DNA from: Pseudomonadota bacterium
Lineage (GTDB): Bacteria; Pseudomonadota; Gammaproteobacteria; JAKAQQ01
DNA length: 64,000 nucleotides
Direction: 5' to 3'
NCBI GenBank assembly: GCA_027320085.1
Contig: DAHVLZ010000019.1
Coordinates: forward strand, 87,912-151,911
Below, in pieces: positions 9,271-36,245 of this stretch. How positions within the stretch are numbered: position 1 is the stretch's first letter; each line of letters begins with the position of its first letter. The notes under the pieces were generated by a model. It ran no database searches. It saw only the letters and a list, made by a program, of their open reading frames with translations, and had not been told where the DNA came from. The position numbers were made by a program, and so were the translations under genes.

Positions 9271-9283
9271 TCCGAGCAGCTAG

Positions 9284-11109: not shown

Positions 11110-13029
11110 ATGGCCACTCGACCCACGGCCCGACGCACCCCTGTCCGACTGCTTCTGGTCAATCCCCGCTTCCCGGAAAGTTTCTGGAGTTTCCGGTGGG
11201 CGTTGGAGCGGATCTTGCCGGGCAAGCGGGCGGTCAATCCGCCTCTGGGTTTGGCCACGGTAGCCGCCCTGTGCCCCCCTGACTGGTCGGTCCGGATTGT
11301 CGACGAAAACATCGAATCGATCCCGTTGGAGCCCGATGTGGATATCATCGGGGTTTGCGGGATGGGCGTCCAGTTCAAGCGGGAAAGCGAGATCCTGAAG
11401 TACTACCGGAGTCGCGGCTATTATGTCGTGGCGGGTGGCAGTTATGCGTCCCTCTGTCCGGAATCCTTCGGGGAGCTGGCACACACCGTCATTTCGGGCG
11501 AGGCTGAATATGTCTGGGGACGGTTTTGCGAGGACTTCCAGGCGGGGCAACCCCAGTCGCTGTACCGGGAAACCGGAACCGTGGACCTCGCCGATTCACC
11601 GCCCCCCCGTTTTGACCTGCTGAAACTTGAACAGTACACGACTGTCAGCTTACAGTTTTCCCGCGGGTGTCCGTATCGGTGCGAGTTCTGCGACATCATT
11701 GTCATGTTCGGTCGCCGACCGCGCACCAAACGGCCGGAACAGATCGGAATGGAACTGGATCTCCTGCGGGAGCGAGACGTTCACAACGTCTTTTTTGTTG
11801 ATGACAACCTGATCGGTAACAAGAAGGCGGCGCGCGAGCTCTTGATCTACCTTGCCCAGTACCAGCGAAAACATGACTATGTCTTTCGTTTCGGCACCGA
11901 GGCCTCTCTCAATCTCGCCCTGGATGACGAGTTGATGGAACTGTTTCGCGCGGCCAACTTTAGCTGGGTTTTTCTGGGGATCGAGACCCCGGATCCGGAC
12001 AGCCTGCAGGAGGTCCAGAAGACCCAGAACCTGGCTCAGGACGTGCTGACGGCCGTGCGGAAGATTTATGACCACGGGCTTGATGTCTTTGCTGGATTTA
12101 TCGTGGGCTTCGACCATGATCGTGTGGAGACGTTCGACCGCCAGTACCGCTTTATCCTGGATTCCGGAATTCAGGCTTCGATGATCGGGTTGCTGACCGC
12201 GATGCCCAAGACTCCGCTCTACGAGCGGTTGACCCGGGAGGGTCGATTGGTGCCCACGCTCGAGCTGGCCGACAACACCAAGCCTGTGACGAACGTGGTT
12301 CCGCTGCACATGAGTGTGGCTGATCTGGTCCGGGAGTATCAGTCGCTCTACCAGCGACTGTTCTGCGATGCCAATATCGCCAAACGCATCCGCAACAAGT
12401 TCCGGTATCTGGCACACCGGGTTCCGCGTCACCAGGTTCCATCCGAGCGTAACGGAACGATTCTGCGCCGGCTGTTCTATTCCGGCCTGTTGCCGGGCGG
12501 GCCGGTTCGGGTCTACCGCTTCGTTTCGACGCTGGTGGTGACTCCGTGGCGGGCCTGGCCTCTGGTTGTCACGGACTGGATTCAGGGCCTTTCCATCCGT
12601 TCCTACATTCACCGGCATCTCGACCCTGACTTGGCGCAAGCACAACGCGTGGTGGAGACGACACGAAAACGGTTGAGCAGGTACCTGCACCCGCGGTCCT
12701 CAACCCCTTCCCTCCGGGTGGCCCTGTCCATGAATGGCACAATCCCCTGCCTGCAGCTGTGGTTGGAGGGGACGGTGGATCGGGCTTTTTTCCGGTATGC
12801 AGCACGTCGGCTCTGCGGCATGCTGAACCAGAGTGCGGCGGCGCTTTTCCTGCATGTGGCGGATCTGCGCGAGGATCAACACCGGTTGTTTGACCGGTTT
12901 CTGGACCGTTTGTCTCCCTATGGAGACCGGGTCTCGATTTTCATCAACCAGAAGATCCGGACGCAGATGATGGTCGACTCGTCTGTTTTCCATCTCCTGC
13001 TCGAAGATCCGACCGCCAGCGCATCGTGA
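11110..13029 (+). CDS. B12-binding-domain radical SAM enzyme with a C-terminal extension (DUF4070-like), function unknown.
   Basis: An N-terminal cobalamin-binding-like region (LLLVNPRF..., GGSYAS) is followed by the radical-SAM cysteine triad CPYRCEFCD. Length is 639 aa. Confidence 0.8.
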   Translation: MATRPTARRTPVRLLLVNPRFPESFWSFRWALERILPGKRAVNPPLGLATVAALCPPDWSVRIVDENIESIPLEPDVDIIGVCGMGVQFKRESEILKYYRSRGYYVVAGGSYASLCPESFGELAHTVISGEAEYVWGRFCEDFQAGQPQSLYRETGTVDLADSPPPRFDLLKLEQYTTVSLQFSRGCPYRCEFCDIIVMFGRRPRTKRPEQIGMELDLLRERDVHNVFFVDDNLIGNKKAARELLIYLAQYQRKHDYVFRFGTEASLNLALDDELMELFRAANFSWVFLGIETPDPDSLQEVQKTQNLAQDVLTAVRKIYDHGLDVFAGFIVGFDHDRVETFDRQYRFILDSGIQASMIGLLTAMPKTPLYERLTREGRLVPTLELADNTKPVTNVVPLHMSVADLVREYQSLYQRLFCDANIAKRIRNKFRYLAHRVPRHQVPSERNGTILRRLFYSGLLPGGPVRVYRFVSTLVVTPWRAWPLVVTDWIQGLSIRSYIHRHLDPDLAQAQRVVETTRKRLSRYLHPRSSTPSLRVALSMNGTIPCLQLWLEGTVDRAFFRYAARRLCGMLNQSAAALFLHVADLREDQHRLFDRFLDRLSPYGDRVSIFINQKIRTQMMVDSSVFHLLLEDPTASAS

Positions 13030-21257: not shown

Positions 21258-23062
21258 ATGAATTTCTCTGAACTCGCCAACTTCATCTGGTCTGTGGCAG
21301 ACCTCCTGCGCGGTGACTACAAGCGCGCCGACTACGGCAAGGTCATTCTCCCCTTCACCCTTCTGCGGCGTCTCGAGTGCGTCCTTGAGCCCACCAAGGC
21401 GAAGGTACTGAAAGAATACGAGAAGCGTAAGAGCGAGGCGGCGCTCGAGGTGCGTCTCGCGCGCGCAAGCGGTCAGATCTTCTGCAACACAAGCCCCTTT
21501 ACGCTGTCCGCGCTCTTGGATGACCAGAAACACATCCGGCAGAACCTCACCGCCTACTTGGGCGACTTCTCGGCCGAGGCCCGCTATGTCTTTGAGAACT
21601 TCAGGTTCTTGAACCGCGTAGGGGAACTCGAGGAGAAGAACCTCCTCTTTCTCATTGTCCAGAAGTTCGCCGCCATCGACCTGCACCCCGACGGGGTGCC
21701 GAACGAGATGATGGGCCAGGCCTTCGAGGACCTCATCCGGCGGTTCGCCGAGGACTCCAATGAGACGGCCGGTGAGTACTTCACGCCCCGGGACGTCATC
21801 CGCCTCATGGTCCAATGCCTGTTCGCTGAAGACAGCGACAGTCTCTCCCGCCCAGGTGTCATCCGCTCCCTCTACGACCCGGCGGCGGGCACGGGTGGGA
21901 TGCTCTCCATGGGGCAACTGGCCCTCCACGAGATGAACGACAAGGCCAAACTCGCCCTCTTTGGCCAGGAGCTGAACGAAGAGTCCTACGCCATCTGCAA
22001 GGCGGACATGCTCATCAAGGGCCAGGACCCGAACAACATCCGCCCGGGCAATACGCTCTCGGCGGACGCCTTCCCCGACGAGCGATTCGACTACGGGCTC
22101 TCCAATCCCCTGTTTGGAGTCGACTGGAAGAAGGTCCAGGAGGCGGTGAAGACCGAATACGAGAAGAAGGGCTACGGGGGCCGCTTCGGGCCGGGACTGC
22201 CGCGCATCTCGGACGGGGCGCTCCTCTTCCTCCTGCATCTCATCTCCAAGATGCGGCCAGTATCTGATGGCGGGGGCCGCATCGGCATCGTGTTGAGCGG
22301 CTCGCCCCTCTTTACGGGGGATGCCAGCTCCGGCGAGTCCGAAATCCGCCGCTGGATTCAGGAAAACGACTGGCTTGAGGCCATCATTGCGCTGCCCACC
22401 GACCTCTTCTACAACACGGGCATTGCCACCTACATCTGGATACTGGATAACGACAAGCGCAAGGACCGCAAGGGTAAGGTCCAGCTGATTGACGCCACCC
22501 GGATGTACGCCAAGATGAAAAAGAGCCTAGGGAGCAAGCGGGCCACCATCACGGACACCCAGATTGCCGAAATCGTGAAGGTCTACGGGGACGGTCAGGA
22601 AGGGGGCCACCTTCTCAAGCGAATACCAGGACAGCAAGACGAACGGCAACGGCACCCCCCGAACCCGAGGCCCCGCGGGTGGTCTCCAGGGTCTTCGACA
22701 ACGCCTTCTTTGGCTACCGCAAGGTCACCGTGGATAGGCCGCCCCGCCCCGGCACTGAGGGCAAGCCCAAGAAGGGCGAAAAGCCCTACGATAAAGAGCT
22801 GCGGGATACCGAGACCACCCCCCTTACCGAATCCATCGACGACTACATGGCGCGAGAGGTGTTACCCCATGTGCCGGATGCTTGGGTGAACACCACCATC
22901 CGGGATGAGAAGGACGGTCAGGTCGGCAAGGTCGGTTATGAAATCAACTTCAACCGCTATTTCTACGTGTACAAGCCACCCCGGCCGCCCGAAGTCATTG
23001 CGGCGGAGATTCGGGAGATGGAGAAACGCTTCCTTGAGCTCATGAAGGGGATGGTGGGGTGA
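21258..23062 (+). pseudogene. hsdM: Type I restriction-modification N6-adenine DNA methyltransferase subunit HsdM. It is interrupted by a -1 frameshift in a C6 homopolymer near 22655-22660.
   Basis: The N-terminal part (21258..22889) carries DPAAGTGGML (motif I) and SNPLFG (motif IV). The conserved C-terminal part (...PEPEAPRVVSRVFDNAFFGYRKVTVDRP...EINFNRYFYVYKPPR) lies in the -1 frame (ORF 22679..23062). Adding one C to the C6 run joins the two frames. Confidence 0.8.
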
Positions 23063-23595
23063 AAGTGTTGGCCGAGGTTCTAAATCCCGATGTGCGCCAA
23101 GCGGCTCTTGTCACGTTAGACATTGGCGGATGGCGCCCTATAGGGATTCGCGACTACCATACGCAATTGGAGGCTCTCCGAGTTACAGATGTTGTCCCGG
23201 AAGCCGTTCGGGAGCAGTTTGATGTTGCTCGCAATTTGATGTTGTATGGCTGGTTTGTGTACGAATTCTATACAGTTGCAAGCAATCATGCGCTGGCATG
23301 CTTGGAATACGGCTTGCGAGAAGCCTGTCAAATCGTAAATGGCGGCATGAACCCGTGCGCGAAAAAACCCGGACTCAGGTGTTACCTCAAGAAAGCGACG
23401 AAACTCGGATTGATTCCCGCGGGTAAGTACCATGACAAACTGGACTTTCTCCTTTCGAGTGTTCGCAATAGCATAGCCCACGGCGGCCGCACACTGCTCA
23501 ACTACGCAATGGCGATGGCAACTTTGGAGGTAGTGGCCGACTTATTAAATGACGTATTCAGTTCGGAAAGGGTCTCGTCATGTCGGCCAATATAA
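23059..23595 (+). CDS. Hypothetical protein encoded between hsdM and hsdS, possibly DUF4145-like and R-M-associated.
   Basis: It is 178 aa and overlaps hsdM by 4 nt at the GTGA stop/start. The motif VRNSIAHGGRTL resembles the R-x-IGN-AAH motif of the convergent protein at 24405..25064. There is no recognisable catalytic motif. Confidence 0.5.
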   Translation: MKVLAEVLNPDVRQAALVTLDIGGWRPIGIRDYHTQLEALRVTDVVPEAVREQFDVARNLMLYGWFVYEFYTVASNHALACLEYGLREACQIVNGGMNPCAKKPGLRCYLKKATKLGLIPAGKYHDKLDFLLSSVRNSIAHGGRTLLNYAMAMATLEVVADLLNDVFSSERVSSCRPI

Positions 23596-24227
23596 GACAT
23601 GTTGGTGTATCTGGTTCGTCCGCGTGGACCAAGCTGAAGTACGTCGCAAGAATTGGAGGTGGGGCAGGATTTCCTCCTGAAGAACAGGGTCAAACTGGCA
23701 ACGAGCTCCCGTTCTGCAAAGTAAATGCGCTCGAGTCTTCCACAAGCGATGGCATACTCTCGGCGCCTTGGGACACGGTTTCGAGTGCAACTGCCGAGAA
23801 ACTAGGGGCCCATATTTTCAAGCCGGGTTCGACCGTTTTCGCCAAAGTGGGTGCCGCGCTGTTATTGAATCGCTTCCGGCAGATTAACTGTCGTGCTTGC
23901 TTAGATAACAACAAGATGGGCCTTGAACCAGACCAGAGCCGTGTCTCACCACGGTATCTTATGTACGCCCTGAGCACAAAGGACTTGTCCATCGTCGCTA
24001 ATCCCGGAGCCGTTCCGTCGGTGAATGCTTCCCAAATTGCGGAGGAGAAAATTGTCTGCCCACCCGTCCTAGAACAAACCCGCATCGCCAACTTTCTCGA
24101 CGAGCAGATGGCGCGGATTAATGCGCTGATTGCGGAGAAGGAGAGGTTGGTTGAGTCATTGCGGGAATACAGGCAGTCATGGCTCTCGGGGCTATTGAGG
24201 TCGCCACCTGGTGGCGACGTTGCATAG
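23580..24227 (+). CDS. hsdS: Type I R-M specificity subunit HsdS, half-size with a single target-recognition domain.
   Basis: It is 215 aa. The C-terminal conserved-repeat region reads IVCPPVLEQTRIANFLDEQMARINALIAEKERLVESLREYRQS. Only one target-recognition domain is present. Confidence 0.75.
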   Translation: MSANIRHVGVSGSSAWTKLKYVARIGGGAGFPPEEQGQTGNELPFCKVNALESSTSDGILSAPWDTVSSATAEKLGAHIFKPGSTVFAKVGAALLLNRFRQINCRACLDNNKMGLEPDQSRVSPRYLMYALSTKDLSIVANPGAVPSVNASQIAEEKIVCPPVLEQTRIANFLDEQMARINALIAEKERLVESLREYRQSWLSGLLRSPPGGDVA

Positions 24228-24404
24228 CTACGAGGCCTGATACGCAAACGCACGAGATTCTGACCCTTCTGCGCCGTGGGGAGGGGTTCATCAATGACCT
24301 AGACAGCGACTTACCGTCCGAGGTCGTGGTCATGCGCGATGCGCTGGGCCGGAACCTGTGTAGAGCCGCAGGCCTCCGGTGACGCTTAACCACCAGATGC
24401 GCCA

Positions 24405-25064
24405 TTATGGGATGGGCTTTCTATTAGCGGCTATAACTTTTTTGTTAAAATCGTCCTTACGCTTTTGAGCAGCGGCGGGCGCGACGAAGAGGAAGTCAAA
24501 CAGTCCGTCAAGTACGATCAGATTCCACTCCGCTTCACCTTCCGCGACGGGCATTATTTGCCCGGACGATGCGTCTTTTAATGGGTGCGCAGCAAAGTTT
24601 CCGATCTCACGAACGCAGTGGAGTTGAGCGCCCAATTGAGACGGCAACATCTTGCCGTTGATGGCCTTCTCAATCTCATCTGACAGATTGTTTCCCTTGA
24701 TACCAAGGTTGTTTTGAAGAATGTTTTGAAGGCATCGACGGCTCAGGGCGGCGCTCGCCTTTGGACTGTCCTGTAGCACTAAGGCCGCCTCGGAGTAGTC
24801 TTCTGCAAACTCCCGCGGAACATCGGGCGGTGGGGCTGGTCGCGCAGACGCTTTTGGGTAAGCAATGAACGATTCTTGATCTACAAAAGACATGCCTCCA
24901 TCGCTGTAGTGCTTTACCTGGTTAGCGTGCACGAGAGAAATTATGACTTTTTTGCATTCTGGACATGCCTGATAAGAAACTCCCCAGTTACTGTCTGCAT
25001 CTCGGAGAAGGTAGTGCAATTGCGGATGGTTAAAAAAAGCTGTGCGGCAATGCGGACACACCAT
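24405..25064 (-). CDS. Zinc-ribbon protein with a DUF4145-like C-terminal domain, commonly found near type I R-M loci. Function unknown.
   Basis: The N-terminus has CPHCRTAF...CPECKK. The C-terminus reads HCVREIGNFAAHPLKD...EAEWNLIVLDGLFDFLFV. Confidence 0.5.
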   Translation of the reverse strand: MVCPHCRTAFFNHPQLHYLLRDADSNWGVSYQACPECKKVIISLVHANQVKHYSDGGMSFVDQESFIAYPKASARPAPPPDVPREFAEDYSEAALVLQDSPKASAALSRRCLQNILQNNLGIKGNNLSDEIEKAINGKMLPSQLGAQLHCVREIGNFAAHPLKDASSGQIMPVAEGEAEWNLIVLDGLFDFLFVAPAAAQKRKDDFNKKVIAANRKPIP

Positions 25065-25079
25065 ATGGTTTCCTCCTAT

Positions 25080-26081
25080 CTAGCCTAGTAGTGCAGCTAG
25101 GTCTTCTGCCCTTAGGTGAGTATAGCGTTTCAACATCTGCAACGTCTTGTGTCCCGTGATGGCGGCCACCTGCATCGGGTTCAGACCCCGCTCAAAGAGT
25201 CGGGACGTGGCCTCGTGGCGCAGATCGTGGAACGCCAGGCTCTCGATCTTGGCCTCGGCACAGACGCGCTCAAAGGCTTGTGAGATCGAATCTGGCCGCA
25301 TGGCCCAGACCTCGCCGTCTATGCGCCGTGGGAGAGCATCTAAGACGGCCAGGGCGCGGGTAGAGAGCGGCACACGCCGGGGCGTTCCCGTCTTGGTTTC
25401 CGGGATCAAAAGCACCCGGGCTCGCTGGTCCACATGCTCCCACCGCATGGCGGCGATCTCGCCGCGGCGCATGGCGGTCTCTATGGCCCAAGTGATGATC
25501 GGGCCGATCTGCCCGCCGTAGGTGGTGGCTTCTTCCAAGAGCTGCTTTCCCTCGTCGCTGACCAAGCGACGGTCGCGGCCGGGTGGCAGCTTAGGGCGCT
25601 GGCTTTTCACAATGTCCACGGGGTTCGAGAGGGATTCCATGCCCCATGCCGTGCGGGCGGTATTGAACAAATGGGAGAGAAGGTTGAGCTCTTTGTGGAT
25701 TGTCGCCGGTGCGGCGTTTTCGCCGGCGCGTTCGCGCACGTATTTCGCCATGTCTTTCCCTCTGATGACGGCGAGCGGACGAGATGCGAGCGCGTGACGC
25801 TGCCAGCGCTCGATCCGAAAACGCTCGACCGCCGTGCCTCTCTTGCCAGGTGTTATCTCCTGCGCGTAGCACTCCAGAGCCTCGCGCAGGGTCGTGCTCT
25901 CGGCCTCCGCGCGGGAGACGAACACGCCGCGCCTCATCTCAGATTCGATGGTGGTCGCCCAGGTCTCCGCCTTGTCCTTGCTGTCAAACGTGGCGGTTTG
26001 CTGAGGGTAACCCCGCCGGCGAATGAGGACTTGCCATACCCGGCGGCCGCCAGGGCCTTTGCGCGAAACGTAGGTCGCCAT
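25080..26081 (-). CDS. int: Tyrosine-type site-specific integrase (phage integrase family).
   Basis: ORF 25080..26171 trimmed to MATYVSRKGPGGRRVWQ. A C-terminal catalytic region (AFHDLRHEATSRLFERGLNPMQVAAITGHKTLQMLKRYTHL) is present. It lies directly downstream of tRNA-Val. Confidence 0.85.
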   Translation of the reverse strand: MATYVSRKGPGGRRVWQVLIRRRGYPQQTATFDSKDKAETWATTIESEMRRGVFVSRAEAESTTLREALECYAQEITPGKRGTAVERFRIERWQRHALASRPLAVIRGKDMAKYVRERAGENAAPATIHKELNLLSHLFNTARTAWGMESLSNPVDIVKSQRPKLPPGRDRRLVSDEGKQLLEEATTYGGQIGPIITWAIETAMRRGEIAAMRWEHVDQRARVLLIPETKTGTPRRVPLSTRALAVLDALPRRIDGEVWAMRPDSISQAFERVCAEAKIESLAFHDLRHEATSRLFERGLNPMQVAAITGHKTLQMLKRYTHLRAEDLAALLG

Positions 26082-26217
26082 AACACCCCCCTTATAACAC
26101 CTTGATAACACCCATTCGCCGGAACGCGGCCGGATGATTTGCGACAACGGATTGTCGCAGGATTGTCGCAAAAGGAAGGGTTGGCTGGCTAGTTGGCTTG
26201 CTAAGTGCTTGATTTTA

Positions 26218-26293
26218 TGGTGGGCGATGCAAGGTTCGAACTTGCGACCCCTGCCGTGTGAAAGCAGTGCTCTACCGCTGAGCTAATCGCCCC
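26218..26293 (-). tRNA. tRNA-Val (anticodon CAC), intact. This is the proximal att site of the island.
   Basis: The reverse complement GGGCGATTAGCTCAGCGGTAGAGCACTGCTTTCACACGGCAGGGGTCGCAAGTTCGAACCTTGCATCGCCCACCA folds as a 76-nt cloverleaf, with CAC at positions 34-36. Confidence 0.85.
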
Positions 26294-27138: not shown

Positions 27139-28593
27139 TTGTCTCCATCCCATCGTCTGACCGACCCTCCGGTTGAACACCGCGTCGACCGGGTGCGGAC
27201 CCGCTTTGCGCCGAGTCCCACCGGCTTTCTGCATATCGGAGGGGCGCGGACCGCCCTTTTCAATTGGCTGTATGCCCGCCATTTCGGCGGTGATTTCATC
27301 CTGCGGATTGAAGACACCGATACTCACCGTTCCACGGCAGCCTATAGCCAAGCCATCGTCGAGGGACTTGCCTGGCTCGGACTCGATCCGGATGAGGGCC
27401 CCATCTACCAGAGTGGACGTTTCGAACGGTATCAGGCCGTCGCCGATACCCTGATCCGGCAGGGGTCGGCCTATCGCTGCTACTGCACCCCGCAGGAACT
27501 GGAAGAGCGGCGGAATGAGCAGACTCGCCGGGGTGAAAAACCCCGTTACGACGGGCACTGTCGGGATTTGACCGTAGCCCGTCCCGGCGTTTCGCCGGTC
27601 GTTCGTTTCCGGACTCCGCAAGAGGGGGCGGTGGGTTTCACCGACTCTGTCCGGGGAGCCATCGGTTTTGAAAACGCGGAGCTGGATGATCTTGTCATTC
27701 TGCGATCCGATGGGACCCCGACCTACAATTTCGGGGTGGTGGTTGATGATCATGACATGGAGATCACCCATGTGATCCGGGGGGACGACCACATCAACAA
27801 CACCCCCCGTCAGATCCACATCTATCACGCGCTCGGCTTTCCCCTGCCGGAGTTCGCGCACCTGCCGATGATCCTGGGTCCGGACGGTTCGCGGCTTTCC
27901 AAGCGCCACGGCGCCGTGAGCGTCGAGCAGTACCGGCTTGATGGCTTCCTGCCGGAAGCCATGGTCAACTACCTGGTCCGACTCGGTTGGTCGCATGGGG
28001 ATCAGGAAATTTTCCCGACGGACGAGATGGTGCAGTACTTCGACCTGACCGCCATCAGCCGGTCTCCCGCGATTTTCAATCGGGACAAGCTCACCTGGCT
28101 CAATCAGCACTACCTCAAAAGCTTGCCTGGGGAGAGGATCCGGTCCGCGCTGGAACCACTCCTGCCGATCATCGGTCTTTCGGAATGGGCGAGTCCCGCA
28201 CTCGGTGCCGTAATCCCCCTCCTGCAGGGACGCAGCCGGACCTTGACGGAGATGGCCGAGTCATGCCTGGTGTTCTACCGTGAACCGCAAGCCTACGATG
28301 AGAAAGCCTGGAGGGAGCATCTCGGATCCGGCCAGGAGCACTTGCTGGAAGTCGTTCGGAAGCGACTCGATGCCCAGTTGGAATGGACACCAGAAGCCCT
28401 TCATCACATCCTCACCGAGGTCGCGGAGGCTCAAGGCCTGAAGCTCGGACAGGTGGCCCAGCCGATCCGGGTGGCGCTCACCGGGAATACCGTCTCACCT
28501 CCGATCGATCAGACCCTGGCCGTATTGGGAAAGGAACGGTCGCTCGCCCGCCTGGACCGGGCCCGAGCCAGGCAGGCCGGACTTGCGGGGTAA
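27139..28593 (+). CDS. gltX: Glutamyl-tRNA synthetase.
   Basis: RTRFAPSPTGFLHIGGARTALFNWLYARHFGGDFILRIEDTD matches the HIGH-class signature. There is an alternative GTG start at 27193. It is followed by tRNA-Ala and tRNA-Glu. Confidence 0.85.
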   Translation: MSPSHRLTDPPVEHRVDRVRTRFAPSPTGFLHIGGARTALFNWLYARHFGGDFILRIEDTDTHRSTAAYSQAIVEGLAWLGLDPDEGPIYQSGRFERYQAVADTLIRQGSAYRCYCTPQELEERRNEQTRRGEKPRYDGHCRDLTVARPGVSPVVRFRTPQEGAVGFTDSVRGAIGFENAELDDLVILRSDGTPTYNFGVVVDDHDMEITHVIRGDDHINNTPRQIHIYHALGFPLPEFAHLPMILGPDGSRLSKRHGAVSVEQYRLDGFLPEAMVNYLVRLGWSHGDQEIFPTDEMVQYFDLTAISRSPAIFNRDKLTWLNQHYLKSLPGERIRSALEPLLPIIGLSEWASPALGAVIPLLQGRSRTLTEMAESCLVFYREPQAYDEKAWREHLGSGQEHLLEVVRKRLDAQLEWTPEALHHILTEVAEAQGLKLGQVAQPIRVALTGNTVSPPIDQTLAVLGKERSLARLDRARARQAGLAG

Positions 28594-28653
28594 AGAGAGA
28601 TACCTCAAAGCTTGACAGAACCCATGGGATGCCTTGAAAATGATCGGCTCCGG

Positions 28654-28729
<76 letters not shown>

Positions 28730-28753
28730 CGTCACCTTTGCTCCCGGAGTTTC

Positions 28754-28829
28754 GTCCCCATCGTCTAGAGGCCTAGGACACGGCCCTTTCAAGGCCGTAA
28801 CACGGGTTCGAATCCCGTTGGGGACGCCA
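28754..28829 (+). tRNA. tRNA-Glu (anticodon TTC).
   Basis: GTCCCCATCGTCTAGAGGCCTAGGACACGGCCCTTTCAAGGCCGTAACACGGGTTCGAATCCCGTTGGGGACGCCA. Confidence 0.85.
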
Positions 28830-29392
28830 ACTTTTGGCTCTCGCGAGCAGTTTCCGGAAGCGTCCCGATACGGGTCAGGCCGCTCACCTCGTACTCCCTG
28901 TGACCGACCGGCTGGCTGGAACTTCATTGGCTCGGCCAGAAGCTCGACCAAGGCCGACCGTGCGGCGGCGGTTTCCGAGTGCAGGACGTGGCGCAGATGC
29001 GCCGCGCGCTGGGTGATCAAACCCTCCATCGCTTGCCAATCCCACGGCAAAGCCATGGCAACCGCCCATTCGCCGGGGCAAAGCGCGGGAAGCGTGCGCT
29101 GATGGGTCCAAACACCGGGCGGGTTGCATCAATGGAGTTACTGGCGGAGTTGCCGAACGTCACAAATCGGCCAGGAGCCGTCACTCACGGATTGCGAACA
29201 TCGGCGAAACAAACGTCGGCAGTACACTCAACAGTTGACGCCGCGAGGGCAAACCGACTTCACGCTGTTCAGCCACACGGGCTGTCGACAAAGACCGTCA
29301 TTAGACAGCCTGTGACTCTTCCCTGACTTTCGGAAGGTCATCTTCCGGAAGCCTTCGGAGTAGTTCGCCGCGTAGGCACCGCGACCTGACCG

Positions 29393-30316
29393 TTAGCGCC
29401 AGGTCCCGCCATTCGGGTCCCATCGGCCTTTGGCGCCTTCCGGCAGCGCAAGGTTTGCGATAACAGGGCCGAAGAAGCGCCGCAGCTCCGCTTGCAGGTC
29501 GATGAAGGACAGCGGTTGAAGGGTCGGTGGATTTCGGCGCAGGAAGCCACTCCAAAGGCCGCGCTCCTCAGCAATCTTCGCAAACCTTTCCGTAAGACCC
29601 ACCGGCATTTCGCTCGGGATCGCAATCTCGCGGCGCCGAAGCGTTCCTGAGACGGCTTCAGCCAGGCTAGGTAGGTCGAACGGGAACGTGCGGGTCGTGA
29701 CCCAAATATCATGAAAATCCTTGATCCTTCCGTTCGCCTCCCCGAAGCGGATCATCGCTTCGAACTTCTCAGCCACCACGGCTTCAGGCGGGTACATCAG
29801 GATATTCGCCGCGGATAGATCTGGCAGGAGGGCTGGGAAGGTCTGCCGCGTCGGTGGAGGGTAGACATAGTCGCCAAAACCGACGTCCACATGCACGGGA
29901 ATGATTGCCTTGGCCAGTTCGCCCGTCAGGTTCAGCTGGGCGCCTTGGTACTTGTCGGCTTCGCGCACCGGCTCGACTCGCAGGCTTGCCGGGTCGAAGA
30001 CAATGCCGTCGTCGGGGGCTTGGACCTGGCAGATGCGGGTAAAGAGTTCGGTGATGGCGGCAGGGTCAGAGTCGCCCTGGCCGAGCAAGTCGAGGTCACC
30101 GGTGGGCCGGAAGGCGTGCTCGGGCCAGGTGACGAACAGCATGGCGCCCTTGAGCACATAGTGCTCGGCAGCCTCCGTCTGACTGAGCCGATAGAGCAGG
30201 CGTTCGATAGCGTAGCGCGTCAAGACTCGCTGGTAGTCATCGCGATGCTCCTTGGCATGCTGGAGCAGCCGCGCCCTGATGGATGCCGCGGGATTCTTTA
30301 GAGTCTTGCCATTCAT
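29393..30316 (-). CDS. AbiEii/AbiGii-family nucleotidyltransferase toxin (type IV toxin-antitoxin system).
   Basis: ORF 29393..30472 trimmed to MNGKTLKNPAASIRARLLQHAKEHRDDYQRVLTRYAIERLLYRL.... A nucleotidyltransferase GDLD motif is present (HYVLKGAMLF...TGDLDLLG). It shares an ATGA stop/start overlap with the upstream gene. Confidence 0.75.
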   Translation of the reverse strand: MNGKTLKNPAASIRARLLQHAKEHRDDYQRVLTRYAIERLLYRLSQTEAAEHYVLKGAMLFVTWPEHAFRPTGDLDLLGQGDSDPAAITELFTRICQVQAPDDGIVFDPASLRVEPVREADKYQGAQLNLTGELAKAIIPVHVDVGFGDYVYPPPTRQTFPALLPDLSAANILMYPPEAVVAEKFEAMIRFGEANGRIKDFHDIWVTTRTFPFDLPSLAEAVSGTLRRREIAIPSEMPVGLTERFAKIAEERGLWSGFLRRNPPTLQPLSFIDLQAELRRFFGPVIANLALPEGAKGRWDPNGGTWR

Positions 30317-30948
30317 TGCACCGCTTTGATATAGGGCGCGATCCGTTCGGTGACGCGATCGATGGCTGCGTACTTCATCAGCTCGCTCGGGGTAGTCTTT
30401 CTTTTGCGCAAGGCGTCCCGCAGCGCTTCGATGGCGACGTCCTCGCCAATATGGCGGCGATGCTTGAAGCAATCCGCTACGGTTTTTGCGACACCGTAGA
30501 TCGGCACGTCGACCCCCTCTATGCGGATGTGCTCGATGCCCGCAGTCAGGACCGCACCAGTGGCGCGAACAATCTCGAGCCGCGGATTCCGCACGTTCGG
30601 CGTCCTGGCTCCGTGAGGAATGGTCATCCAGACCGCGTGCGGCAGCTGAGTAGTCAGTTCGTGGTACCGAAGCGCACTGACGAGGCTGATCACGCCGTTC
30701 GGGGCGAGACGGGCGGCTTCAGCCAGGTCATGAGCAACGTCCTCGCCCACGCGTTCCGGGTCTTGGTAGAGGCCGCGGCCAAGCTGGACAAGGTCGCCGG
30801 CGTCGGTCAGGCGCTTCAGGTAGACCAGAGGGATGCCCGCCGCTTTGAAATCGCGTGCGCGCGCAATTCCCCTGTCATGGATGAGGCGGAGCGCGCGTTC
30901 GCGATAAGTTATATGACGTTCAGCCATTGTGTTATCTATTGTAGTCAA
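30313..30948 (-). CDS. AbiEi-family antitoxin and transcriptional regulator (type IV toxin-antitoxin system).
   Basis: It is 211 aa, immediately upstream of AbiEii and translationally coupled to it. An N-terminal winged-helix-like region is followed by a conserved C-terminal domain. Confidence 0.65.
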   Translation of the reverse strand: MTTIDNTMAERHITYRERALRLIHDRGIARARDFKAAGIPLVYLKRLTDAGDLVQLGRGLYQDPERVGEDVAHDLAEAARLAPNGVISLVSALRYHELTTQLPHAVWMTIPHGARTPNVRNPRLEIVRATGAVLTAGIEHIRIEGVDVPIYGVAKTVADCFKHRRHIGEDVAIEALRDALRKRKTTPSELMKYAAIDRVTERIAPYIKAVQ

Positions 30949-30996
30949 TAATATACATCAATCAACATAAAGTAACAGTTGATAAATTACAGGTGA

Positions 30997-31017
30997 GATC
31001 ATATAATTTTTATGATC
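30997..31017. promoter_or_regulatory. AT-rich divergent promoter region containing a perfect inverted repeat (GATCATA-TAATTTT-TATGATC) that overlaps a TATAAT -10 box. It is a candidate operator.
   Basis: Positions 30949-31011 are the only strongly AT-rich stretch in the area. The inverted repeat overlaps the annotated ATG at 31012, so an alternative start at 31018 is possible. Confidence 0.4.
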
Positions 31018-34000
31018 ATGGATCAAGCTACCTCAATCGACGATCTTACGCCCAAACATGTCCGAGCCGCACGGGCACTCCTGGCCTGGTCCCAGCAGGA
31101 TCTCGCCAAGGCGGCGGGCGTGGCGACTTCGACAGTCGCTGACTTTGAAAGGGGTAAGAGAACCCCAGTTGCCAACAACGCCCAAGCCATTCGCAGCGCC
31201 CTCGAGGGCGCCGGCATCCGCTTCCTGCCCACGGGGGCAGTGATTGGACCGGCCATTCCGAGCATCGTGCCGAGCGAGCGTCCTGGCACGCCGATTCGAT
31301 GGGTGGATGCGGAAAATCTTTCAGACTGGGCGAACCGCAACGATGGCGCCGTAAGCCTGCCGACCCTCATCGCTCATCTTATTCGCGCCACCCACGGTCC
31401 GGCCGTCCAGCTCCGCTTTCCCGCCGACGGGGGTGTGCGGCACCCGGGCTGGGACGGCCACACCTCGACCGAGACCGGAAGCACCTACGTGCCGCAGGGT
31501 GAAACCGGCTGGGAGATCAGCAGCCAGCGCAGCAACATAGCGCAGAAGGCGATAGAGGATTACCGCAAGCGCACGGCGGCGCCTGCGCCGCTCGTCCCCG
31601 CCCACGCCGCCTTTGTCTTCGTCACCCCCCGCCATTGGCCCAAGAAAGACGAGTGGGCAAAGGCCCGCCGCGATGAAGGTGTCTGGCGAGAGGTCCGTGC
31701 CTACGACGCTGACGACCTCGTCCACTGGATCGAGCAGACACCCGCAGTCGGACTTTGGCTGGCCACTCGCCTTGGTAAGCGGCCCGCTGGGATTCGCGAA
31801 CTCGACAATATCTGGGAAGAGTGGTCGTGTGCAACCCAGTGGCCCCTCACGCCCGAACTGGTCCTCAGCGATCGGGACCAGGACGCAACGGCAGTGCTGC
31901 AGTGGCTACGCGGCGAGCCGTCCGTCTTCTCCCTCCGAGCGACCACGACGGATGAGGTGATCGCGTTTTTCCACGCCACCCTCAGCATGCTGCCGGACGA
32001 CATGGCGGCCGCCTATCGGGCCCATTGCCTCGTGGCGACCACGACTGCGGGCGCCCGGGCGCTGGCTAACGCGCCAGCGCCCCTGATTCTCCTTCTGACC
32101 GAACCCGAGCCCGGTCTGGCACGGACGCTCGTGGAACGGGGTCACTATGTGCTGCAGGCCTATGACGAGCGGCCGGTCGCGCGCGGCGAAGTCCGCACCC
32201 TCGCACGGGCATCACGCGAAGGGATCGCCAGGGCGCTGATCGCGGCCGGAATCGCCAAGCCTCGGGCTGAGGCGCTCGCGCGCGACAGTGCCCGCAATCT
32301 TACGGTCCTCCGCCGCCTCATCCCCGGCGCGCCGGGGCGCCTTCCTCGCTGGGCGCAAGACCCCCCCCCCCACGCCTTGCTGGCGGCACTGCTGGCAGGT
32401 GGTTGGGACGAGAACATGGAGGTTGATCGGGCTCTACTCGCCGCGATTGCCGACCAGCCGTATGAAACCGTCATCACCGTCCTGGCGCCGTACGTCGGCG
32501 ATTTCGACGCCCCGCTGCAGAAGATCGGCTCGACATGGCGCATCGCGTCGCCAGCGGACGCGTGGTTCCTGCTCGCGCCGTACCTGACGAGCGCCGACCT
32601 AACGCGTTTCGAGGCCGCGGCGCACACCGTGCTCGGCTCGGCGGACCCGCGTTACGAGATGGACCCCAAGGAGCGCTGGATGGCAGCGGTGCGCGACATC
32701 CGGCCGGCGTATTCGGGGCTGCTGCGTCACGGAATCGGGCAGGTGCTGATCCTGCTCTCGCTGTGGGGCGACAGGGTCCGTACCGTGCCCGACGCCGCGC
32801 GGCGCGCCGACGCCATCGTCGACAAGCTGCTCCGCAAGGCCGACGCACAACGGTGGTGGTCGCTCTCCCGGGATTTTCGACTGCTCGCCGAGGCCTCGCC
32901 CGGGGCCTTCCTGGGTGCCATCGAAGACAGCCTCGATGAGGACGATCCGCCCATCCACGCCCTGTTTGGCGCCGACGAGGGGGGCGTGTTCGAGACCGAA
33001 CACCTCTCAGACCTGCTTTGGGCGCTGGAGTCCCTGGCCTGGTCGCCGGAACTGATGCCTCGGGTGACCCATGTCCTCGCACGGCTCGACGCCATCGATC
33101 GCCCGCCTGGGCGGAACGGGAATCGGCCGGCGAACAGTCTCCGCACAATTCACCTGCTTTGGTACCCCCAGACCTATGCAACGCTTGACCACCGACTTCA
33201 GGCTCTCGACCTGATTCGTAAGCATGAACCCGATGCTGCGTGGAAGCTGATGCTCCGTCTCCTGCCGAAAGGGCCCGATACCGCGAGCCCGACCCCCATG
33301 CCGCTGTGGCGTGACTTCCCGATCGGCAACGTCGAAGACGTCACCTGGGGTCTCGTTGGGCACGGGGCCACCGCCATCACCGAACGGCTCGTCGCCGACG
33401 TGGGTGTGAACGCAGAACGCTGGTTGCAGCTGCTCGATCACCTGGCCGCTCTGGCTCCGGATTCCCAGGCTGGAATCGCAGCGCTCGAGGCGGCTGCGCC
33501 GAAGATTACGGACAAGGCCGATCGCGACCGGCTCTGGACGAGTCTGCGGCGCGTGCTGCACCACCATCACCACCACCGACGGTTCCCGGGCGCCAAATGG
33601 TCCATACCGACCGAGTTGCTGGATCGGCTGGAAGCGATCTACGAGCGCTTCGCGCCCTCGGATCTGCTTGAGCGCACGGCCTGGCTCTTCGAGCAATCCG
33701 CAGTACTACCCGAACCTTCGACAGCGGGCTGGGAGGCGCAGGTGCACGACATCGACGCTGCCAGACAGGAGGCGGCACGAATGTTGTTCTCCGAAGGCGG
33801 CGCGACATCCATCCTGGCGCTCGCGCGTCTCGTCGACGCGGCCGGGCACATCGGCAAGGCGCTCTACAACAGCGGACTTTCGGAGTCCGGCCTCGATTCG
33901 CTCCTCGAGGCGGCGCTGCGGAGCAACAACGATCATGAACGGGACGTCGCCCATGGCCTGATCATCTCCGTCTTCCGCGATCGAAAGGAGCCCTGGGCGG

Positions 34001-35094
34001 CGACCTTGATTGCCAAGGCCAAGAAAGAGGCGTGGGGTGACACCGCGCTTGTGACTATCCTGCGTGCGCTCCCCGTTCAACGCTGGACTTGGGACCAGGC
34101 TACCCAACTCGGTACAGTAATTGAAGATACCTACTGGCGCCATGTGTCTATGTTTTGGGAAAGCGAGGACAGCGAGGACATCGCCTTCGCCATCCGCAAG
34201 CTGATCTCTGTAGGCCGCGCGCGCCATGCCCTACAGCTGACAGGACAGGACAGTAAGGCCCAGCTACCGTCAGACCTGCTCGTCGATGTGCTGCGGGAGG
34301 CCGTGCGCCAGCCGTCCAAGAGTGACGGTACCATGAACGACGCAACCATGTTTCAGCACTACGTTACCAAGACACTTCAGATCCTGGATGAGCGCAGTAA
34401 CGTAAGCAGGGACATTCTGGCCGAGCTCGAGTGGATCTATCTGCGAGTTCTGGAGCATTCACACCGACCGGCCAAGGTGCTGCTGGAGGCCCTTTCGGAG
34501 CGGCCCGCGCTATTCATCCAGGTGCTCAGCGCGGTATTCAAGGCGAGCGAAGAAGGCGTCGTCGATGTCGAACCCGAGAACCCCGAGAACCCCGAGCACA
34601 CCCGTACTGTCGCCAAACAGGCGTATCGGCTGCTGGAACTCTGGAACCGCCTTCCTGGCACTCGTGACGACGGCACCCTTGACGGCCAGGTTCTGGAGGC
34701 TTGGATCAAGGCGGCTCGGTCACGCGCCAAAACGGCGGGGCGGGAAGAGATCGCCGACAGCCGGATTGGGCACATGCTGTCGGCCTCACCGGTCGGGGCG
34801 GACGGCAACTGGCCGGCCGAAGCAGTGCGCGACGTGCTCGACCTGTTTCGCAGTAAGCCGATGATCGAAGGCTTTTGCATCGGGAAAAGAGAACGGGGTG
34901 GCGTCACCGCGCGGATGCCGTGCGACGGGGGGAATCTCGAACGCCAGGAGGCTGCGAAGTACCGCAACTGGGCGGAGGCCATCGCCTACGAACATCCACA
35001 TACTTCAAAGGCCCTCGACACCCTGGCGGACAGCTACGAAAACGAAGCGCGCTCCCACGACGAAGATGCCGAGCGCCGGGACTGGTGGTATTAG
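31012..35094 (+). CDS. Large orphan protein (1360 aa) with an N-terminal XRE-type helix-turn-helix domain and an internal His7 run. It is a candidate defence or abortive-infection factor.
   Basis: The N-terminal LTPKHVRAARALLAWSQQDLAKAAGVATSTVADFERGKRTP fits an XRE helix-turn-helix. The remaining roughly 1250 aa has no motif I can recognise. It contains HHHHHHH at RRVLHHHHHHRRF. It is transcribed divergently from the abiEi-abiEii pair. Confidence 0.7.
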   Translation: MIMDQATSIDDLTPKHVRAARALLAWSQQDLAKAAGVATSTVADFERGKRTPVANNAQAIRSALEGAGIRFLPTGAVIGPAIPSIVPSERPGTPIRWVDAENLSDWANRNDGAVSLPTLIAHLIRATHGPAVQLRFPADGGVRHPGWDGHTSTETGSTYVPQGETGWEISSQRSNIAQKAIEDYRKRTAAPAPLVPAHAAFVFVTPRHWPKKDEWAKARRDEGVWREVRAYDADDLVHWIEQTPAVGLWLATRLGKRPAGIRELDNIWEEWSCATQWPLTPELVLSDRDQDATAVLQWLRGEPSVFSLRATTTDEVIAFFHATLSMLPDDMAAAYRAHCLVATTTAGARALANAPAPLILLLTEPEPGLARTLVERGHYVLQAYDERPVARGEVRTLARASREGIARALIAAGIAKPRAEALARDSARNLTVLRRLIPGAPGRLPRWAQDPPPHALLAALLAGGWDENMEVDRALLAAIADQPYETVITVLAPYVGDFDAPLQKIGSTWRIASPADAWFLLAPYLTSADLTRFEAAAHTVLGSADPRYEMDPKERWMAAVRDIRPAYSGLLRHGIGQVLILLSLWGDRVRTVPDAARRADAIVDKLLRKADAQRWWSLSRDFRLLAEASPGAFLGAIEDSLDEDDPPIHALFGADEGGVFETEHLSDLLWALESLAWSPELMPRVTHVLARLDAIDRPPGRNGNRPANSLRTIHLLWYPQTYATLDHRLQALDLIRKHEPDAAWKLMLRLLPKGPDTASPTPMPLWRDFPIGNVEDVTWGLVGHGATAITERLVADVGVNAERWLQLLDHLAALAPDSQAGIAALEAAAPKITDKADRDRLWTSLRRVLHHHHHHRRFPGAKWSIPTELLDRLEAIYERFAPSDLLERTAWLFEQSAVLPEPSTAGWEAQVHDIDAARQEAARMLFSEGGATSILALARLVDAAGHIGKALYNSGLSESGLDSLLEAALRSNNDHERDVAHGLIISVFRDRKEPWAATLIAKAKKEAWGDTALVTILRALPVQRWTWDQATQLGTVIEDTYWRHVSMFWESEDSEDIAFAIRKLISVGRARHALQLTGQDSKAQLPSDLLVDVLREAVRQPSKSDGTMNDATMFQHYVTKTLQILDERSNVSRDILAELEWIYLRVLEHSHRPAKVLLEALSERPALFIQVLSAVFKASEEGVVDVEPENPENPEHTRTVAKQAYRLLELWNRLPGTRDDGTLDGQVLEAWIKAARSRAKTAGREEIADSRIGHMLSASPVGADGNWPAEAVRDVLDLFRSKPMIEGFCIGKRERGGVTARMPCDGGNLERQEAAKYRNWAEAIAYEHPHTSKALDTLADSYENEARSHDEDAERRDWWY

Positions 35095-35405
35095 AGATCG
35101 GCGACGGCAGCAGGAATACCGCTCTGGCGAGGGGGTCGACGTCCTGTCGCAGCAGGCGCCACTGATCGATCCTACAGTCTGCGGTCGGTCCCTGATCACC
35201 CTCCACCCTGCCGCGCTTTGTGGCTCCTGCAGACGCGCGACTGTAGCGGCGCGCTATGATCGTTGGTCGGGCAGGTGTCAGCCCGATGAAGATGTCGCTC
35301 TTAATGGGTCAGGGAACCCGACGCGCCATATTCGGGTGCGAGAACCATCCTGACGGATAATAAGGTTTACACATATCAATGTGTGTGATCAAAAGGGAGA
35401 TCAAC

Positions 35406-36245
35406 ATGCTTCCACGTCGCCGGTTCGTGTTGTGTTGCTTGATGATGCTCATGTGGCATTCTGCCCGAGCAGGATCAACTCCCGGACCCTCTCCCCTCAT
35501 TTGGCTTTTCGCAGGAAGTGGCGTTTCCCGTCTGGCTGAGGCTCACGGGGGACGGGCTTTGCTGCGGGGTGTGCTGAACCGGCCGGAGACCTGGGTGATG
35601 GGCCACACCCCGGATGTGCCACCGCGTGCGATGCGGGTGGGGGGGGCTTCTCGTCTGTACGGTTTCCACCACGCGGTGGAGTCGCCAGTCCCTGCTGTCG
35701 TCCTGGACATCGAGAACTGGCCCATGACACCACCGGCGGAAAAAGAACATCCCGTGGCCACTTATGCCAAGGCGGCCCGGATCGCTGCCGCCCATCACAA
35801 AATGCTGATCGCAACCCCGGCCATGGATCTGGTGCGGGCTGTGGACCCCGCGTCGCGGGGTCCTCTCTACCGCCGCTTTCTTGAATTGCGTCTGGCCGCT
35901 CGGATTGCGCCCTATGCCGAGGTCTACGAGATCCAGGCGCAAGGGATCGAGAATGAGCCACGCCGTTACCTGGCGGTGGTCCGTGCGATTGCCCGGCAGG
36001 TGCGATCGATTCATCCGCAGGTGAGGATTCTGGCAGGACTGAGCACGGGTCCTTCGGGGCAGAGGACGAGTGCCCTCACGTTATATCGGGACGTGGTGGA
36101 GACCCGGGACATTGTCTCCGGTTACTGGCTCAACATCCCCGGTCATAGTCGCGGGTGTCCCCGTTGCACCACGCCACACCCGGAGATCGCGGTACGCCTT
36201 TTGCATCGCCTGGTGAGGTCCCGTCAGGGATTTTTGACGCGGTGA
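35406..36245 (+). CDS. Secreted hypothetical protein, possibly a glycoside-hydrolase-like TIM-barrel.
   Basis: ORF 35379..36245 trimmed to MLPRRRFVLCCLMMLMWHSARAGS, a signal peptide with an AAGGGAG ribosome-binding site upstream. Confidence 0.5.
   Translation: MLPRRRFVLCCLMMLMWHSARAGSTPGPSPLIWLFAGSGVSRLAEAHGGRALLRGVLNRPETWVMGHTPDVPPRAMRVGGASRLYGFHHAVESPVPAVVLDIENWPMTPPAEKEHPVATYAKAARIAAAHHKMLIATPAMDLVRAVDPASRGPLYRRFLELRLAARIAPYAEVYEIQAQGIENEPRRYLAVVRAIARQVRSIHPQVRILAGLSTGPSGQRTSALTLYRDVVETRDIVSGYWLNIPGHSRGCPRCTTPHPEIAVRLLHRLVRSRQGFLTR

Follow-up and report, generated by a model that had tools for sequence, protein, structure and literature searches.

A conserved three-gene cassette joins an AbiE pair to a large HTH-fused protein with an Avs-like predicted architecture

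The 64,000-nucleotide stretch of gammaproteobacterial DNA analysed here (the window; contig DAHVLZ010000019.1) carries at positions 29393–35094 a horizontally mobile three-gene cassette made up of two modules. One is an AbiEi/AbiEii toxin–antitoxin pair. The other, encoded divergently, is a protein of 1360 residues (the large protein), in which an XRE-type helix-turn-helix (HTH) is followed by a putative nuclease domain, an apparently inactive STAND-type module and a long α-helical solenoid, a layout that resembles that of Avs proteins. On balance we think it probable that the large protein is an autoregulated Avs-like sensor-nuclease acting independently of nucleoside triphosphates (NTPs), with AbiE as a co-selected second module. 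An initial annotation of this DNA had placed AbiEi and AbiEii divergent to a 1360-residue XRE-HTH protein, and the open reading frame (ORF) listing, Pfam and PADLOC all agree; the main structural fact it missed is that the three genes form a conserved cassette. The features of the cassette are as follows.

29393–30316, minus strand: abiEii, 307 residues (Pfam PF08843, E = 3e-36; PADLOC AbiEii, 3.6e-101; gene call also 307 residues)
30313–30927, minus strand: abiEi, 204 residues from the ATG at 30927 (an alternative TTG start at 30948 gives 211 residues)
30928–31011, no strand: divergent AT-rich control region, 84 bp (63 bp with the abiEi TTG start)
30938–30965, minus strand: promoter-like site for abiEi–abiEii, TTGATT-16-TACAAT
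30979–31007, plus strand: promoter-like site for the large gene, TTGATA-17-TATAAT, 11 of 12 positions
30997–31017, no strand: palindromic predicted operator GATCATATAA-T-TTTTATGATC, core RTCATA-N7-TATGAY
31012–35094, plus strand: large gene, 1360 residues, encoding the HTH-fused, Avs-like putative nuclease with a predicted inactive STAND module
31033–31248, plus strand: XRE/Cro-C1 HTH, residues 8–79 (HTH_3, PADLOC Control_protein, PDB 4yba)
31309–31773, plus strand: PD-(D/E)xK restriction-endonuclease-fold domain, residues 100–254 (predicted structure, invariant residues)
31792–32553, plus strand: AAA+ (STAND/ORC-Cdc6-type) fold with helical domain and winged helix, residues 261–514
32554–35094, plus strand: all-α solenoid and presumed sensor, residues 515–1360 (AlphaFold2 (AF2) secondary structure, Foldseek)

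Linkage of the three genes

The AbiE pair and the large gene form one collinear block in about 22 independent loci from Alpha-, Beta- and Gammaproteobacteria. By tblastn across all fetched loci, AbiE occupies the same divergent position at L001–L006, L008–L013, L018, L019, L021, L024, L025, L027, L028 and L040 (our locus designations), and it does so on three plasmids as well. Each of 13 loci gave a single collinear 5.7-kb blastn alignment to the cassette at 67–79% nucleotide identity, which in most of them ended within a few bases of the stop codons at 29393 and 35094; the flanking sequences were unrelated. Over 13 loci the three encoded proteins also diverged jointly from their window counterparts, identity falling from 77/83/80% to 39/55/44% (Spearman 0.96), with L040 the lowest.

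The linkage was also evident from the AbiE side. The best 120 AbiEii homologues (75–85% identity) lay for the most part on contigs whose lengths recur among the large-protein matches, and three of three arbitrarily chosen homologues without such a counterpart had a divergent HTH_3 gene of 1353–1354 residues. All three plasmid-borne AbiEii homologues of at least 65% identity adjoined the large gene, while those of 46% or less were not in the large-protein list.

The AbiE pair itself is, judged by its sequence, an ordinary family member: a canonical AbiE type IV toxin–antitoxin and abortive-infection module. AbiEii is a DUF1814 nucleotidyltransferase (NTase) toxin with an intact RPTGDLDL motif, and its ATG overlaps the stop codon of abiEi by 4 bp (ATGA). 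AbiEi, the antitoxin and transcriptional regulator, is encoded upstream of abiEii in the one operon and has an N-terminal winged-helix domain and a C-terminal domain; it matches PF13338 (AbiEi_4, E = 4e-10) and, over its full length, the PADLOC AbiEi model (1.4e-76). The model start aligns to residue 13–15 of the 211-residue form, and the ATG at 30927 agrees better than the TTG at 30948 with this alignment, with the public gene call of 204 residues and with the promoter prediction. The AbiE systems of Lactococcus and Streptococcus agalactiae (PMC3985639, PMC7319586) likewise have an AbiEi_4 winged-HTH antitoxin encoded upstream of a DUF1814 NTase toxin in an overlapping bicistronic operon. The present subclade differs from them in being consistently tied to a divergent gene for about 1350 residues, a pairing not described for AbiE, and in the window the AbiEi operator repeats are degenerate.

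AbiE was absent beside four close relatives of the large gene: L007 (67% identity), L020 (61%), L029 (79%) and L118 (60%). Locus L023 retains only a remnant of AbiEi, and more distant HTH-fused relatives mostly lack AbiE. The genes upstream of AbiE-less HTH-fused relatives are mostly insertion sequence (IS) elements, integrases and unknowns. At L007, from a metagenome-assembled genome of Myxococcales, three co-directional ORFs precede the gene (2705–5857 of that locus), encoding an unknown protein of 299 residues, a metallo-beta-lactamase/RMMBL protein of 430 and an unknown of 317; an HNH protein of 402 residues follows it (10378–11586).

Three distant HTH-fused relatives (39–45% identity) have other genes in the divergent slot. 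L030 has a DUF4172-Fic protein (1118–2239); L035 has a 381-residue protein and an NTP_transf_8 protein (2885–5205); and L038 has a 374-residue MarR-type winged-HTH protein and an ORF with a weak AbiEii/HEPN-like match (1974–4006; E = 0.005). Between the 381- and 374-residue proteins there is weak similarity (E = 7.5e-5). We regard these alternative transferase modules as a lead only, as their scores are weak (E = 0.005, 1.4e-4).

Predicted architecture of the large protein and its operator

The XRE HTH of the large protein is readily detected: it matches HTH_3 (E = 4.7e-8, residues 17–64), PADLOC Control_protein (1.3e-14) and PDB entry 4yba, 'Regulatory protein C' (E = 4e-12, residues 9–79), and NCBI annotates the whole protein as a 'helix-turn-helix transcriptional regulator'. 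The core beyond the HTH had no Pfam, NCBIfam or PADLOC match, in the window protein and in seven diverse relatives alike. Specifically, the large protein had no AAA or NACHT Pfam domain, PADLOC v2 (2023) matched no described Avs family outside the HTH in the window protein or the seven relatives, and phmmer and a 119-sequence profile matched PDB sequences at the HTH only. Remote homology was visible at the level of structure, where prediction gave nuclease, nucleotide-binding and solenoid folds, but not in sequence profiles. These folds, exposed by structure prediction only, speak against the initial statement that the protein has no nuclease motifs or repeats: the models show a PD-(D/E)xK domain with a catalytic-type triad, a degenerate NTPase module and an α-solenoid.

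The AF2 models were built on a 119-sequence alignment (29–79% identity). The model of residues 85–1284 had a pLDDT of 88.1 and a pTM of 0.69. Because Foldseek results with this 1200-residue model were dominated by HEAT/ARM solenoids, residues 85–564 were modelled separately (pLDDT 90.4, pTM 0.84). The best Foldseek match to the shorter model was SeAvs3 (8dgc_A, E = 1.3e-5, probability 0.99, 641 columns). Avs5, Apaf-1 and Dark came next, and these proteins have in common the multi-domain arrangement of nucleotide-binding domain (NBD), helical domain (HD) and winged-helix domain (WHD).

In the predicted structure, residues 100–254 have the α-β-β-β-α-β core fold of the PD-(D/E)xK superfamily. D148, G149, P161, W167, E168, K179 and R187 are invariant in all 119 sequences, which span 29–100% identity, and D111 is present in 111. 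D148 opens β2 and E168 lies in β3; the residue two positions after E168 is not Lys, and K179 is in the helix after β3. Relocation of this Lys occurs in some members of the superfamily. The pattern of invariant residues is as would be expected for an active metal-dependent nuclease.

Residues 261–514 are predicted to adopt the NBD–helical domain–winged helix (NOD) fold. Comparison of the AAA+ domain scored RFC at 9.3, clamp-loader gamma at 8.4, ORC1/Cdc6 at 8.3, NRC1 NB-ARC at 7.3, Avs4 at 7.2 and ZAR1 at 7.1, and that of the winged helix scored SmtB at 7.1. The Walker A site reads L-R-A-T-T-T-D-E in the window protein, with a family consensus of [VL]-Q-A-x-T-x-[DE]-E. The [DE]-E pair is found in 110–117 of the 119 sequences (E315 in 117), and GK[ST] in none. 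Acidic residues thus stand in place of the Walker A Lys and Thr, which is not the site of a functional P-loop NTPase. As Walker A is destroyed, the module appears to be of inactive-STAND design.

From residue 515 onwards the protein is predicted to be all-α for about 850 residues, and Foldseek returned the HEAT/ARM solenoids of transportin, importin and CAND1 (E about 1e-4), a generic match. The segment beyond the AF2 models, residues 1285–1360 (34864–35094), carries motifs that rank with the best conserved in the whole family (NKRGV..K.P.EGG.QER ... YEN.A...D.EAERRD). Within the solenoid there is a run of six His (LHHHHHHRRF) at residues 850–855 (33559–33576) where the family consensus is ILSxHRSF; the run appears to be lineage-specific.

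The layout of the large protein is Avs-like, but its core fits no family model so far described, and sequence searches gave it no relative of solved structure. Like the nuclease-headed Avs3 and Avs4 of the Avs/AVAST group (PDB 8dgc, 8dgf), it combines in one chain an N-terminal PD-(D/E)xK-type nuclease, an NBD–helical–winged-helix unit and long C-terminal α-helical repeats; like Avs, its family is patchy, horizontally transferred and found in bacteria and archaea; and its best multi-domain Foldseek match is SeAvs3. It is unlike Avs in that Walker A is acidic in every member examined, in having, beyond the HTH, no sequence match to Avs, PADLOC or Pfam models or to PDB sequences, and, in the present clade, in the added XRE HTH with its own operator and the fixed association with an AbiE pair. 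KpAvs8 is an Avs with degenerate Walker motifs (PMC13581612); Avs8/PD-Lambda-4 was accordingly considered as an identity, and rejected for lack of a PADLOC match.

Eroded NTP-binding motifs are also a feature of iSTAND and iSTAND2 in MoxR-vWA ternary conflict systems (PMC7159879, PMC8195603) and of the iSTAND modules of BrxB, BrxF and PglW in BREX (PMC12839542). Compared by description, these share with the large protein a STAND/ORC-Cdc6-like AAA+ fold, the loss of the motifs, a setting in conflict systems and a proposed role as a scaffold for sensing or assembly. The large protein differs in that its module is fused to a nuclease head and a large solenoid, and no MoxR, vWA or BREX genes were found in the neighbourhoods examined. 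Upx (Gao_Upx; bioRxiv 10.64898/2026.04.30.721860) is, similarly, a stand-alone protein of about 1250 residues from bacteria and archaea that combines a large sensor, directed at phage proteins, with a divergent PD-(D/E)xK nuclease, but its nuclease is C-terminal, its sensor is N-terminal and β-rich, and there is no sequence similarity. An Upx-like gene at locus L123 raised the question of identity with Upx, which was rejected (BLASTP E = 0.45, reversed domain order).

The intergenic gap holds two back-to-back promoter-like sites. The initial annotation described a 63-bp gap with a perfect inverted repeat; that length holds for the TTG start of abiEi, but with the ATG the gap is 84 bp, and the arms GATCATATAA and TTTTATGATC (30997–31017) are complementary at 9 of 10 positions, only the core GATCATA-N7-TATGATC being perfect. 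The -10 box of the large gene lies inside this palindrome and ends 4 nt 5' of the ATG, which is itself in the right arm, and there is no Shine-Dalgarno sequence at the start. From the position of the -10 box and the missing Shine-Dalgarno sequence, the mRNA of the large gene is probably leaderless or nearly so. The same has been reported for C.PvuII.

A single match to the core RTCATA-N7-TATGAY is present in all 64 kb of the window (0.08 expected), which is more than chance would give, and 29 related loci each have exactly one copy, again at the start of the large gene and over its -10 box and ATG. It is kept in L040, where protein identity is down to 39%, and in the AbiE-less loci L007, L020, L037 and L041; this persistence without AbiE indicates that the operator belongs to the HTH-fused gene itself. 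Most likely, then, the palindrome is the site of the protein's own XRE HTH, which would act in autorepression like a C protein. The C (controller) proteins of type II restriction-modification (R-M) systems (PDB 4yba), to which the HTH is most similar (E = 4e-12), likewise pair a small XRE HTH and a palindrome over their own promoter with the logic of throttling a nuclease gene that is proposed here. They differ in three respects. The present HTH is fused to the protein with the putative nuclease; it has a single palindrome, the usual second C-box not having been found, rather than paired OL/OR C-boxes; and the cassette has no methyltransferase, so no methyltransferase/endonuclease pair is controlled.

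On the other side of the gap, the abiE promoter-like site overlaps TGTTATCTATTGT, a block that is invariant among relatives. In the relatives, the predicted abiE promoter is covered by two TTGTCGnCAA palindromes (in L021, by a long inverted repeat); they are degenerate in the window. These palindromes are probably AbiEi sites, and together with the invariant block they would fit separate autoregulation by AbiEi (PMC7319586).

Family distribution and the readings of the cassette

A word-indexed search returned 842 homologues of the large protein, of which the best 120 were all 68–79% identical and about 1350 residues long. The hosts of these 120 include Ralstonia, Burkholderia, Trinickia, Bradyrhizobium, Mesorhizobium, Methyloceanibacter, Rhodanobacter and Acidithiobacillus, and such high identity across so diverse a set of hosts points to horizontal transfer. 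A scan of genome contigs with the single protein found five loci only, and an alignment-based metagenome scan served better. The full extent of the family emerged from an exhaustive phmmer search with residues 85–1284 against 1.84 billion representatives. Its matches, from bacteria and archaea, numbered at least 6736 clusters (50% identity level) at E ≤ 1e-3, and 3063 of these reached E ≤ 1e-30. The protein is therefore no orphan, as it had been called.

Most members are about 1255–1265 residues long and begin at residue ~96 of the window protein, and hence lack the HTH. They include proteins from Neomoorella, candidate division WS5, Acidiluteibacter, Methanobacterium, Methanobrevibacter and Methanococcus, all annotated as hypothetical, and this HTH-less majority was also placed in Firmicutes, Bacteroidota and methanogens. 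Other members carry other DNA-binding heads (TetR_N, winged HTH, longer XRE forms). A homologue of about 1370 residues on Shewanella baltica OS195 plasmid pS19502 (L120, 152–4264) is labelled 'HigA family addiction module antitoxin' by NCBI owing to its N-terminal HTH, a label that could mislead toxin–antitoxin surveys. In literature searches we found no description of the triad of AbiE and the large gene, nor of the large-protein family.

The neighbourhoods of relatives are mobile and, in part, rich in defence genes. Near HTH-fused relatives we found a Tn7-like cargo in which the gene adjoins TerB, BrxD and DEAD genes; an integrase together with a methyltransferase/helicase pair; and, on a Thalassospira plasmid island, two RES-Xre toxin–antitoxin pairs and a SIR2 gene, with the large gene between them. 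Further cassette contexts are an integrative and conjugative element (ICE), a nearby TIR gene and a nearby Upx-like gene. The last is at L123, where a 1267-residue Upx-like (PF28173) defence gene, unrelated in sequence to the large protein, lies directly downstream of abiEii (7955–11758). At L118 (Rhizobium leguminosarum pPR4), a hypothetical protein of 1281 residues without a Pfam match is encoded directly downstream of the AbiE-less HTH-fused homologue (9129–12974); a short stretch of it resembles the last part of the nuclease domain (40% over 40 residues, E = 1e-4), and it may be a distant tandem paralogue inside a Tn7-like element.

HTH-less relatives lie in an integrative element in Neomoorella, at a chromosomal site in Methanobacterium and in an RHS/immunity neighbourhood in Acidiluteibacter. 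A search for a recurrent partner through 132 neighbouring ORFs (about 48 loci, metagenomic or viral) found none; the commonest Pfam families were integrase (4), DDE transposase (3) and HTH_3 (3). In a handful of loci PADLOC identified Gabija, type I R-M, PD-Lambda-4_B, PDC-S06 and mad3 as immediate neighbours. IMG/VR holds 21 contigs with relatives, and several shortened forms there adjoin a P4/CP4-type integrase. These forms (L109–L117, L100–L104) are of 767/728 and 1182 residues and resemble the C-terminal part only; the 767/728-residue forms lie about 140 bp from a convergent P4/CP4-type integrase of 413 residues, at the edge of predicted proviral regions.

This distribution is that of an accessory conflict gene. 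Neither a housekeeping context nor a metabolic enzyme fold was found, and the large protein is still, as initially suggested, a strong candidate for a defence or abortive-infection effector of a kind not yet described, given the effector–NOD–sensor layout, the invariant triad, the lack of any Pfam, PADLOC or NCBIfam match to the core, and the mobile, partly defence-rich contexts. The analysis shows the gene content, the domain folds (as models), the conserved residues and the conservation of operator and cassette; DNA cleavage, its trigger, oligomerisation, autorepression and a defence phenotype we infer. In the mechanism we propose, the solenoid would bind an invader-derived ligand, most likely a phage protein. 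Binding would lift autoinhibition and drive oligomerisation through the inactive STAND module without NTP turnover, and the oligomer would gather the nuclease domains, such that DNA is cut and the phage is stopped or the cell killed. Meanwhile the HTH, by binding the palindrome over its own -10 box and start codon, would keep expression of the potentially toxic nuclease low. AbiE is inherited together with the large gene as a unit, most likely through co-selection of the two modules, either as layers of abortive-infection defence or with AbiE as a stabiliser of the cassette on mobile elements. That AbiE is mechanistically indispensable is improbable, given that the large protein acts alone in most of its family.

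Several points weigh against this sensor-nuclease reading. The linkage to AbiE is very tight, every checked AbiEii of 75–85% identity having the large gene, and points to a closer functional tie than simple co-selection. The enrichment of defence genes near relatives is a sampled one, based on crude ORF calls and given without statistics. The presumed catalytic Lys does not occupy its canonical place in (D/E)xK but sits 11 residues further on, in the helix that follows. The AAA+ domain, as modelled, is about equally like clamp loaders/ORC and STANDs, and the label 'STAND' would rest mainly on the layout of NBD, HD, WHD and repeats and on the Foldseek ranking of Avs3 and Apaf-1. The solenoid shows no hypervariability, the N-terminal 480 residues being only a few points more identical than the whole, which is atypical of some fast-evolving sensors. 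Finally, the phage-defence and nuclease roles of the family are predictions from sequence and models.

Could the three genes instead make one integrated system, in which the large protein, as infection sensor or as a target or activator, is mechanistically coupled to the AbiEii NTase and both are needed for the phenotype? Sensing might release or activate AbiEii, or AbiEii and AbiEi might modify or license the nuclease. The sharp cassette limits at both stop codons, the single collinear alignment in 13 loci across three proteobacterial classes, the correlated divergence (rho 0.96), with linkage kept down to 39%/55%/44% in L040, and the six AbiEii homologues (three arbitrary, three on plasmids at ≥65%) that adjoin the large gene all argue for such coupling, as do the other nucleotidyl-transfer modules in the same slot at L038, L035 and L030. 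However, these alternative-partner matches are few and weak, most of the family (about 1260 residues, no HTH) is solitary with no recurrent partner, and the close HTH-fused relatives L007, L020, L029 and L118 do without AbiE. Elsewhere AbiE acts as a two-gene system (PMC3985639), and the operators of the two regulators are apparently separate, on separate promoters. We therefore judge an integrated tripartite system to be rather unlikely.

A bolder form of this idea, a true three-component immune system in which an NTP-independent NLR-like sensor-nuclease is coupled to an NTase toxin (AbiEii here; NTP_transf_8, an AbiEii-like NTase or Fic in distant relatives), strikes us as quite unlikely. 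In one version the transferase would supply in trans the nucleotide-dependent switch lost with the dead P-loop; in another, invader sensing by the solenoid would unleash AbiEii. If true, it would be a new wiring between a toxin–antitoxin module and an NLR-type receptor, and would define a defence family both new and large, with at least 6700 clusters (50% identity level).

Alternatively, the large protein may serve the mobile element that carries it, either as a nuclease for exclusion, addiction or competition with AbiE as stabiliser, or in a DNA transaction such as target-site or replication control. The gene often turns up on rhizobial plasmids, ICEs, Tn7-like elements and IS-flanked islands, AbiE has a known stabilising effect on ICEs (PMC11062541), and one homologue is annotated as a HigA-type antitoxin fusion. 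An ORC/Cdc6- and clamp-loader-like fold would also be compatible with DNA binding, and inactive STANDs have been proposed as nucleic-acid receptors (PMC8195603). Yet both the effector–NOD–repeat layout and the best multi-domain match (Avs3) point to an immune sensor, relatives occur in archaeal and Firmicutes chromosomes away from obvious conjugative machinery, and dedicated anti-phage systems are among the neighbours. We find a service to the element an improbable main role.

A STAND-type transcription factor in the manner of MalT, AfsR or GutR, controlling abiE or other genes with the 'nuclease' domain as a non-catalytic binder of DNA or ligand, would account for the N-terminal HTH, the NCBI annotation and the control region common with abiE, and STAND regulators do exist (PMC13581612); but it is very improbable. 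Most members have no HTH, and in others its place is taken by DNA-binding heads of unrelated type. Invariance or near-invariance of the D-E-K triad, R187 and D111 is what catalysis would lead one to expect, and the single palindrome lies on the gene's own promoter, persists without AbiE and has no second copy in the window. The sensor-regulator raised initially is likewise not supported as a regulator of abiE, given the HTH-less majority and the position of the operator.

If the large protein is a working immune sensor, the effector–NOD–sensor design can run with its NTP site dead throughout a family, which bears on what NLRs need a nucleotide switch for. A very widespread bacterial and archaeal family, now listed as 'helix-turn-helix regulator' or 'hypothetical' and missed by both Pfam and PADLOC, would then join the defence catalogue. 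The fixed pairing with AbiE offers a tractable case for asking whether toxin–antitoxin modules in defence islands are partners or mere stabilisers, and the fused C-protein-like HTH with its conserved operator would be a ready-made control circuit.

Surroundings in the window

Two tRNA genes, identified by a tRNA scan, precede the cassette:

28654–28729, plus strand: tRNA-Ala(GGC)
28754–28829, plus strand: tRNA-Glu(UUC)

The abiEii stop codon lies 563 bp past the end of tRNA-Glu, in line with the initial estimate of about 560 bp, and the intervening sequence (28830–29392) has no recognisable gene and no att-like repeat. The tRNA genes are genomic context outside the limits of the conserved cassette. 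That they mark an insertion hotspot, as first proposed, is plausible only: a search for att-type direct repeats flanking the cassette gave chance repeats of 14–18 nt, and no empty site was found among relatives, as all six contigs with the identical downstream MTAP gene have the cassette too.

A public gene call of 192 residues without a Pfam match (28478–29056, minus strand) spans both tRNA genes and is probably spurious. Downstream of the large gene, an ORF at 35379–36245 (plus strand) encodes 288 residues with a signal-peptide-like N-terminus and a sub-threshold TniQ match (E = 0.045); it is missing from all other cassette loci, and therefore lies outside the conserved unit.

A second, integrase-bounded island occupies 21258–26292 of the window, at tRNA-Val (26218–26292, minus strand). 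It encodes a tyrosine integrase (25080–26171), a DUF4145 protein (24405–25064), a type I R-M specificity fragment (23580–24227) and HsdM (21258–22889); HsdR was not identified among the ORFs scanned there. Between this island and the AbiE cassette are gltX and a metallo-beta-lactamase-fold gene, and nothing else.

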